Positions 4,302 to 4,623 of a DNA stretch of 35,994 nt are shown here, piece after piece; the stretch's first letter is position 1, and each line of letters begins with the position of its first letter. Origin of the DNA: Escherichia phage PhiR44_2; sequence record PV340564. One strand, written 5' to 3'. A program made the position numbers and the translations under genes. The notes below the pieces were generated by a model. The model did not search any database and was not told where the DNA came from. It saw only the letters and a program-made list of their open reading frames with translations.

Positions 4302-4623
4302 GAAACCAGAACATGCACACACAAAAAAACCGCTTGCCATGCCGCAATCAGTCAGGTTACATTTCCGCTGCACCTCACAAAACGGGTGCCGGGTTTCGCA
4401 GCCTGCTGACTACACAAGCGCACAACCGCGCCAGCGGTTTTTTTGTGCGTACTGTATTGCCACGTTTTTTTCGCGTCAGAATTATGGCGGGGCGTACGGG
4501 GCCGACTTCGGTCGGGCCGGGTTCTTGTGTAGCCGGTACTGCGAACCTCGTACGTCTCGCCACCCACAGTTTCGCAGCTCTGGATGGTGAGTTTTCACAA
4601 CTTACTACACAAGGGGCCACACC
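4302..4623 (+). other. Structured non-coding segment with repeats (candidate ncRNA or protein-binding array)
   Basis: No convincing ORF; 12-bp inverted repeat AAAAAAACCGCT (4323-4334) / AGCGGTTTTTTT (4433-4444); C(UUCG)G tetraloop hairpin at 4499-4518; GTTTCGCAGC at 4393 and 4569; CTACACAAG at 4410, 4603 and inverted at 4524. Confidence 0.4.

Follow-up and report, generated by a model that had tools for sequence, protein, structure and literature searches.

The 322-bp segment at positions 4302-4623 of Escherichia phage PhiR44_2 (record PV340564; the window is the whole analysed stretch of 35,994 nucleotides (nt)) belongs to the rightward early operon of a P2-family phage that is P88-like (Xuanwuvirus). 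The segment very probably constitutes an RNA switch of the P1 immI/P4 immunity type. An isrK-type leader RNA and a c4/CI-type antisense RNA are encoded there, and the recognition boxes of c4 occur once in the leader and again in front of the next gene, which encodes a homologue of the P4 helper-derepression protein epsilon. RNA family membership, RNA structure together with three-way covariation of the boxes, placement of box b2 over a Shine-Dalgarno (SD) sequence, homology of the flanking genes and the architecture of the open reading frames (ORFs) were observed directly. More tentatively, P88-like phages are proposed to run a second P4-type RNA immunity and induction switch, in which c4 would gate the phage's own epsilon-type anti-repressor of a P2-C-type repressor together with replication gene A, and an eta-like ORF would override this gate.

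A preliminary description, made from the sequence letters, had reported a structured non-coding segment with phased repeats and had suggested a phage small RNA, a cis-regulatory element or a binding-site array for a neighbouring DNA-binding protein. All elements that it listed are present, at the positions it gave or within 1 nt of them. Its first two suggestions both hold and apply jointly: two RNAs are encoded here, and the segment contains the target boxes of these same RNAs.

A covariance-model search against Rfam, which the preliminary description had proposed as a check, returned exactly two matches at gathering thresholds across the whole window, isrK and C4. A scan of the window for tRNA and transfer-messenger RNA genes gave no match. 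The features of the cassette are as follows.

4334-4363, + strand: promoter-like site (-35 TTGCCA 4334-4339, 18-nt spacer, -10 TACATT 4358-4363; putative transcription start ~4370)
4370-4444, + strand: isrK-type leader/decoy RNA (Rfam RF01394, 64.1 bits against a cut-off of 50, model positions 1-77)
4370-4389, + strand: hairpin 1 of the isrK-type RNA, from the fold
4391-4404, + strand: hairpin 2 of the isrK-type RNA, from the fold, with box a1 in its loop
4424-4444, + strand: intrinsic terminator from a terminator scan (stem 4424-4439, U7 4438-4444)
4480-4567, + strand: c4/CI-type antisense RNA (Rfam RF01695, 83.2 bits against a cut-off of 45, full model 1-87)
4485-4501 and 4546-4562, + strand: 17-bp closing stem of c4
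4502-4515, + strand: c4 hairpin 1, with a UUCG loop
4516-4537, + strand: c4 hairpin 2, with box b' in its loop
4569-4616, + strand: downstream target region in the mRNA leader (a2, b2 and SD)

The minimum free energy structure of the c4 segment is the family consensus structure (-47.7 kcal/mol, z = -4.5 relative to shuffled sequences). The tetraloop hairpin described earlier is its hairpin 1, CCGAC-UUCG-GUCGG at 4502-4515. When the C4 stems were compared in nine phages, compensatory, double-sided changes were found in 12 of the 27 pairs and no pair was broken; a comparison with relatives for such changes had been proposed at the outset. Covariation was also analysed across relatives for the stems of the isrK segment, and supports the leader structure. 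The leader fits the isrK model better than the c4-a1b1 model (64.1 against 20.9 bits). The pair of matches, in the same order and spacing, is present in P88, Shae_phiSM, five lambdoid phages, PhiR46_1 and P4. In P1 and P4, c4/CI is cut from a longer precursor as a stable RNA of ~77 nt, its 5' end being made by RNase P.

The phased repeats are the recognition boxes of c4. Names follow the P1 nomenclature and were taken from the annotated P1 record.

4393-4401: box a1, GTTTCGCAG, loop of leader hairpin 2
4410-4418: box b1, CTACACAAG, single-stranded linker of the leader
4524-4532: box b', CTTGTGTAG, loop of c4 hairpin 2
4539-4546: box a', CTGCGAAC, single-stranded joint of c4
4569-4577: box a2, GTTTCGCAG, mRNA leader 3' of c4
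4605-4613: box b2, CTACACAAG, mRNA leader, overlapping the SD sequence AAGGGG (4611-4616)

The repeats had been described as direct copies of GTTTCGCAG(C), here 4393-4402 and 4569-4578, and of CTACACAAG, here 4410-4418 and 4605-4613 on the + strand with a complement at 4524-4532, and were recovered as such. The complementarity of CTGCGAAC (4539-4546) to the GTTTCGCAG copies had been caught only in part. CTACACAAG occurs three times in the 36-kb window (0.08 expected; none of 100 shuffles reached three). GTTTCGCAG alone is not significant (two seen, 0.56 expected), but its complement CTGCGAAC covaries across relatives. Predicted duplexes of the c4 core reach -35.9 kcal/mol with the leader copy and -35.0 kcal/mol with the downstream copy, against approximately -21 ± 3.4 kcal/mol for shuffled targets. 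The predicted duplex with the downstream copy spans ~4566-4618 and covers the SD sequence, which lies 7 nt before the ATG at 4624.

Box sequences were compared first among 10 phages, in which the loop and joint boxes differ from phage to phage yet match both target copies in each. A P88-like set was then used, comprising 86 loci with 46 unique sequences; 83 further loci were gathered via the downstream protein, and a scan of genome contigs with the epsilon-like protein gave three loci only. In this set the promoter, hairpin stems, terminator and a long-range inverted repeat (described below) are essentially invariant, and substitutions concentrate in the six boxes. Loop boxes fall into 11 types and joint boxes into five, in 14 combinations with matching targets in each. 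Across these 14 specificity types the box copies change together and Watson-Crick or G-U complementarity is kept. Cognate duplexes average -33 to -34 kcal/mol and non-cognate duplexes -22 to -23 kcal/mol; the cognate target ranked first for 12 of the 14 types with the upstream copy and for 13 with the downstream copy. No other observation argues as strongly as this three-way covariation for RNA pairing as the role of the repeats; a DNA-binding array or a coding region would not show it.

The exact combination of b' and a' was found on 40 IMG/VR contigs, all of them P88-like and with the epsilon-like gene downstream; the idea that this c4 specificity is shared with other element types was rejected on that ground. 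In one relative, L084 (IMGVR_UViG_2582580934_000004), 17 nt are inserted in c4, in a region ~140-160 nt before the gene start at 397. The insertion adds a second loop box, ATTCTTTGCTCT, of the type found in L048-like phages, to hairpin 2 beside the box of the window's type. The targets of L084 itself are of the window's type only. Its c4 RNA may have dual specificity; alternatively, the insertion may reflect recombination or an assembly artefact.

The third suggestion of the preliminary description concerned the products of neighbouring genes. The two genes immediately upstream are as follows.

3760-4005: MarR/winged-helix protein
4002-4301: Ead/Ea22-like protein, immediately before the segment

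A DNA binding-site array for the winged-helix protein, or for Cox or C, might be expected where a 9-mer occurs three times, and a second motif two or three times, within 220 bp beside a helix-turn-helix (HTH) gene. The third copy of each motif is, however, inverted and falls exactly in the loop or joint of an RNA supported by a covariance model. Copies co-vary for complementarity in the 14 types while the context of the winged-helix gene varies, and the same box logic is found in P1, P4 and lambdoid phages that lack this gene. RNA-RNA pairing boxes account fully for the repeats, one copy being inverted in an antisense-RNA hairpin loop and complementarity being kept as the copies co-vary, so that an array for the winged-helix protein finds no support and is hardly to be credited.

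The segment had also been said to contain no credible ORF. A 205-codon ORF, hereafter ORF205, does span it. The ORFs of the region are as follows.

4313-4930, + strand: ORF205, enclosing the promoter, both RNA genes and, in another frame, the epsilon-like gene
4624-4854, + strand: epsilon-like gene (76 amino acids), homologue of the P4 epsilon (E) helper-derepression/anti-repressor protein
4927-5316, + strand: orf129, which would be subject to polarity or coupling
5286-8153, + strand: gpA-type replication endonuclease (longest ORF; Phage_GPA, 437 bits), which would likewise be subject to polarity or coupling

ORF205 starts at an ATG 11 nt past the stop of the upstream gene and 57 nt before the putative transcription start. 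It ends at TGA 4928-4930, which overlaps the ATG of orf129 at 4927 (ATGA), and this overlap is present at 79 of 86 loci. An in-frame ATG is found 57-60 nt upstream of the isrK start at 75 of 80 loci, in three upstream contexts and always beside the upstream stop. A conserved AUG at the 5' end of c4 (4484) is in frame with ORF205, and the frame from this AUG is open at least to the first downstream start codon in all 10 phages compared.

ORF205 could be an ordinary gene for a 205-residue "Ash family/transcriptional regulator" protein, with the repeats incidental. RefSeq NC_049391 labels it "transcriptional regulator". It matches Pfam PF10554 Phage_ASH (26.5 bits against a cut-off of 26; residues 16-109, nt 4358-4639), the translated isrK-C4-target cassette is matched by PHROGs 995, 6928 and 821 ("transcriptional regulator/repressor"), and 43 of 46 unique relatives keep the frame open. 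The Phage_ASH match, however, coincides with the isrK-C4-target stretch here and in four lambdoid phages (ST64B, mEp460, 1720a-02 and Lys8385), and in P4 with the C4-plus-downstream part (example loci: L007, 1489-1776; L010, 8330-8521, minus strand). Variation is confined to the pairing boxes, where complementarity and not amino acids is kept, and the stems carry compensatory changes. Codon differences were counted in the epsilon overlap, RNA constraints confounding such counts in the Ash part: 133 synonymous and 181 non-synonymous differences were obtained for the epsilon frame, against 41 and 271 for the ORF205 frame, so ORF205 shows no amino-acid constraint in the overlap. The Prokaryotic Genome Annotation Pipeline (PGAP) places neither a coding sequence (CDS) nor a non-coding RNA over the stretch in any of the Escherichia coli genome records listed. 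Furthermore, P4 CI is established as an RNA, and orf45 of Gifsy-1 is conserved in nucleotides only.

A conserved regulator protein was therefore rejected, both on the counts of 41 against 271 and because the Phage_ASH match coincides with the RNA cassette; we regard a purely protein-coding explanation as very improbable. The earlier statement on ORFs stands in part: an annotated ORF spans the region, and PGAP calls none in the listed records. Coding annotation in relatives likewise touches the non-coding reading formally, through the ORF and Phage_ASH, but the Phage_ASH match falls on the RNA cassette in every phage tested and the epsilon overlap is free of amino-acid constraint. Phage_ASH and the PHROG "regulator" families seem to reflect, in large part, conserved RNA genes, onto which they spread regulator labels.

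ORF205 looks like an eta-like translated regulatory ORF and not a conserved protein; it is read in this way because its architecture matches the published P4 logic, and its translation is predicted. Comparison of the relatives suggests that the frame is kept open. As a translated leader it may couple ribosomes to orf129 and A and skip epsilon. Translation of ORF205 as a regulatory device is likely, and forms part of the RNA switch. An overlapping gene across epsilon was also considered and was not established: the frame stays open over epsilon in 6% of synonymous recodings, and ~4.5 stop-creating changes were expected against ~1 seen.

The promoter-like site was found by pattern scan and matches 9 of 12 consensus positions. 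The -10 hexamer ends 7 nt before isrK model position 1, as does the -10 of the annotated P1c4 (P51b) promoter in P1, and hexamers resembling -35 and -10 elements stand at the same position in all 10 phages when the sequences are compared by eye. Removal of the homologous promoter in Gifsy-1 eliminated both RNAs (PMC4825925). A second sigma-70-like site at 4457-4485 (TTGCCA-17-AATTAT) was discarded. It would start transcription inside the c4 stem, is unconserved in P88 and the lambdoid cassettes, and is probably a chance match.

The leader could instead act mainly in trans, as an Hfq-dependent small RNA on host genes, with its linkage to c4 secondary. The Rfam family is named "isrK Hfq binding RNA", and the Rho-independent terminator with a U7 tail at the end of the leader is typical of Hfq-binding small RNAs. 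The only variable parts of the leader are nevertheless its two boxes, which track the linked c4, and the demonstrated target in Gifsy-1 is the RNA's own read-through transcript. A host-directed role as the main function is accordingly considered unlikely.

The 76-residue protein encoded at 4624-4854 matches Pfam PF25738 Derepression (32.5 bits against a cut-off of 27) and aligns with P4 epsilon by BLASTP (29% identity, E = 4e-9). The record of phage P88 labels its counterpart "derepression protein". The immunity repressor of the phage is found on the opposite strand.

1284-1586, - strand: P2 C-type immunity repressor (38% identity to P2 C, E = 4e-23)

In P4 the E/epsilon protein is an anti-repressor that binds P2 C, and Thr67 of P2 C is the site of a sos mutation that blocks E (PMC2995052). 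The threonine aligned with Thr67 is conserved in the repressor of the window, which is presumed, by analogy, to be the target of the epsilon-like protein. The early region of P2 itself gave no C4 or isrK match at E <= 0.1. The cassette was thereby ruled out as a general feature of the P2 family, and together with the epsilon-like gene it is a feature of the P88-like lineage.

From these elements the following course of events is proposed. The internal promoter at ~4334-4363 would start transcripts near 4370. Most would end at the terminator at 4424-4444, giving an isrK-type RNA of ~75 nt with a1 and b1. Read-through transcripts, and those from the early promoter, would contain c4 (4480-4567), which would presumably be excised as a stable RNA of ~80 nt as in P1 and P4. 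On c4, a hairpin loop would expose b' and a single-stranded joint a', and c4 would pair with a2/b2 in the epsilon-like leader. Translation of the anti-repressor would be blocked because b2 overlaps the ribosome-binding site, and by polarity orf129 and replication gene A would be blocked too when transcribed from the internal promoter. The a1/b1 boxes of the isrK-type RNA would serve as a decoy competing for c4, and may also promote termination as in P4. ORF205 would be translatable only on transcripts from the early promoter, because transcripts from the internal start site begin downstream of its ATG. Ribosomes crossing the cassette would, by analogy with P4 eta, make lytic transcripts insensitive to c4 and would reach orf129 via the ATGA overlap. 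The epsilon-like protein would then inactivate the phage's own P2-C-type repressor. The hypervariable boxes would set RNA-immunity specificities, and c4 would act in trans against any superinfecting phage whose boxes are of its own type.

In P1 and P4 the block to translation leads to Rho-dependent termination. The same RNAs could also work chiefly by terminating transcription, at the isrK terminator, beyond it or in a Rho-dependent manner, through pairing of c4 with a1/b1 and a2/b2 on nascent transcripts. P4 has the same Rfam pair, the same layout and a downstream epsilon, and PMC4825925 and PMC10111431 describe its mechanism as termination; in the window, 5 nt separate box b1 from the terminator stem that follows it. 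On the other side, b2 overlaps the SD sequence of the first gene as in P1, where the record annotates c4 as repressing icd-ant translation through a2/b2. Termination as the chief mode is possible but rather doubtful; the two modes are compatible and not exclusive.

The P4 immunity region reads PLE, seqA, CI RNA/seqB and seqC nested in eta/kil, then epsilon, orf151, cnr and alpha. Both Rfam matches occur there in the same order, isrK at 60.8 bits (the PLE leader with seqA) and then C4 at 74.9 bits (CI RNA). The equivalence of isrK with the seqA region and of C4 with CI via Rfam models has been published (PMC10111431). Two RNA boxes complementary to upstream and downstream copies are shared with P4, as are promoter-like -35/-10 elements at the same position, a long ORF over the promoter and both RNA genes and in frame with the c4 AUG, and epsilon (29% identity) followed by a replication gene downstream. 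According to the summary in PMC10111431, P4 has a constitutive promoter inside eta whose transcript is terminated via CI/seqA (Forti et al. 1999), and full-length Eta is made only from the upstream promoter, coupled to the upstream gene, with its translation preventing termination. CI-dependent termination is also described in PMC4825925.

The present cassette differs from that of P4 in several respects. Its host element is a full P2-like phage of the helper type and not a satellite. The epsilon-like gene is first after the boxes, 11 nt past b2, whereas P4 has a 65-codon kil/eta frame there and epsilon follows ~245 nt on. The long ORF overlaps epsilon out of frame here and ends on the start of orf129. 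The spacer between isrK and c4 is 35 nt here and 107 nt in P4, a gpA rolling-circle nickase takes the place of the alpha primase-helicase, and the 15-bp inverted repeat is absent from P4.

P1/P7 immI has the same element order in its annotated record (P51 promoters, a1 b1, c4, a2 b2, icd, ant1/ant2). There too b2 adjoins the ribosome-binding site of the first downstream ORF, and the operon yields an anti-repressor directed at the primary immunity repressor. P1 matches C4 at 68.8 bits, and its leader, clearly homologous to that of the window, matches c4-a1b1 at 51 bits and isrK at 35.1 bits; it thus fits c4-a1b1 better, whereas that of the window fits isrK better. The anti-repressors are unrelated (Ant1/2 against epsilon-like), no icd-like gene is present here, one P1 c4 promoter carries a C1 operator, and here the module is embedded in the early replication operon.

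Gifsy-1 of Salmonella (isrK, orf45/STnc1160, anrP) shares the Rfam isrK family and a processed RNA of ~80 nt complementary to IsrK (PMC4825925). One promoter there gives a short terminated RNA and a read-through transcript processed to the ~80-nt RNA (Hershko-Shalev et al. 2016, PMC4825925). IsrK activates translation of the downstream anti-repressor in trans, and that gene is coupled by an AUGA stop/start; the nucleotide sequence of orf45 is conserved and its amino-acid sequence is not (PMC4825925). The orf45 AUG, at +107, agrees in position with the lambdoid c4 AUG (+103 to +106); that of the window is at +115. Gifsy-1 is a lambdoid prophage with a different anti-repressor, AnrP; orf45 ends at the anti-repressor start, whereas here the frame runs 304 nt past the epsilon start; and the middle element was read by the authors as an ORF/mRNA segment and not as a c4 RNA (PMC4825925).

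Lambdoid cassettes (ST64B, mEp460, Stx2a_1447, 1720a-02 and Lys8385Vzw) have ~70-73% nucleotide identity over 4370-4564 and both Rfam matches, and lie inside the early rightward operon just upstream of replication genes. They differ in that the cassette ORF is fused in frame to the gated gene, which encodes a Rha/Bro-type anti-repressor, and in the lack of the 15-bp inverted repeat. In these loci (L004-L008, ~1141-2300 in each) the CDS annotated as "Rha/antirepressor/peptidase" is one open frame, which starts 360-414 nt upstream of isrK at a cII-like stop and runs through both RNAs into a genuine Rha domain. In 1720a-02 this frame carries two CDS annotations (1290-1469 and 1441-2304), and no cII-like CDS is annotated in ST64B. 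The true start of the lambdoid anti-repressor is probably the ATG just past box b2.

The 12-bp inverted repeat reported in the preliminary description (AAAAAAACCGCT at 4323-4334 and AGCGGTTTTTTT at 4433-4444) is present and is in fact longer, a perfect 15-mer (CACAAAAAAACCGCT at 4320-4334 and AGCGGTTTTTTTGTG at 4433-4447) within an extended repeat matching at 19 of 21 positions (4317-4337 and 4430-4450).

4317-4337, + strand: left arm of the inverted repeat, at the left edge of the conserved P88-like block and overlapping the -35 hexamer

All 46 unique P88-like sequences carry the repeat unchanged; the lambdoid, P1 and P4 cassettes lack it. With both arms invariant and changes in homopolymer length inconsistent, covariation speaks neither for nor against pairing of the arms. 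The minimum free energy structure of 4315-4450 forms the inverted-repeat helix (-55 kcal/mol, z = -4.6). The left arm lies 5' of the internal start and is hence present as RNA only on transcripts from upstream. On these, in the modelled fold, the arm could base-pair with the terminator of isrK (its 3' half and U-tract) and so create an antiterminator or RNase III site of a kind not known from P1 or P4. In the left arm, the A7 run lies at ~-47 to -41 of the putative start and could be a UP-like element for the internal promoter.

Several points weigh against the RNA switch as set out above. The 15-bp inverted repeat falls outside its account. The RF03163 c4-a1b1 model scores below its cut-off here (20.9 against 46.7 bits, 4357-4409). 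The candidate promoter at 4334-4363, which would drive the isrK/c4 transcript, is suggested by a match at only 9 of 12 positions and by positional conservation. The epsilon-like assignment is probable from sequence comparison, the 29% identity covering 66 residues and the Pfam match lying only 5 bits over its cut-off. The openness of the frame across epsilon is only marginally unusual, and selection on it is weakly indicated. Promoter activity, including that in lysogens, RNA processing, the translational block or termination and the epsilon-like target are predicted for this phage by analogy. The sequence is compatible with a block to translation (P1), with premature termination (P4) and with both. 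The authors of the Gifsy-1 study stress activation by IsrK, and constitutive STnc1160 left toxicity unrelieved (PMC4825925); the balance between decoy and repressor is therefore uncertain.

The 322-bp region has 100% identity to Xuanwuvirus P884B11 (NC_049391) and ~87% to phage P88 and Citrobacter phage Shae_phiSM, all of which are Peduoviridae (P2-like phages). The early genes run from the integrase through the C-type repressor (minus strand), Cox, several small ORFs, the genes at 3760-4005 and 4002-4301, the segment, the gene at 4624-4854 and orf129 to the gpA-type endonuclease. At a coverage of at least 80%, the 322-bp region was found in 1152 of 5426 complete E. coli genomes (~21%), in up to four copies and mostly in the chromosome. 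Identities of these copies fall into separate bands, consistent with the box types (example: L135, 1501-1822).

Descriptions of the RNA families, of the box logic and of the eta-type override already exist for P1, P4 and Gifsy-1. A literature search on P88-like or Xuanwuvirus phages turned up no account of this cassette. The novelty lies in the host element, which belongs to the P2 family, in an epsilon homologue as the gene that would be gated directly and in the out-of-frame nesting of that gene in an eta-like ORF, together with the lineage-specific inverted repeat and the breadth of box diversity. The kind of system being well known, the result mainly corrects annotation and extends the distribution of the module: a 320-bp stretch left unannotated, or in one RefSeq record mis-annotated, becomes a defined regulatory module, and Phage_ASH and several PHROG "transcriptional regulator" families are flagged as largely translated RNA genes. 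An antisense-RNA layer is suggested in some P2-family phages beyond the classical C/Cox protein switch, which would control an epsilon-type anti-repressor and the replication gene. If this holds, the immunity-plus-epsilon module of P4 shares ancestry with a module of helper-type phages, with capture in either direction, and the box combinations, 14 or more in number, would represent classes of RNA immunity that are diversifying and that determine cross-talk among co-resident P2-like prophages and possibly satellites. The 14 matched RNA specificities would offer a natural panel for RNA-based heteroimmunity.

One further gene lies beyond the replication gene.

8230-9189: ParM-type plasmid segregation gene, after replication gene A, annotated in P88 and P884B11

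Its position behind A hints at an option of plasmid-like maintenance.

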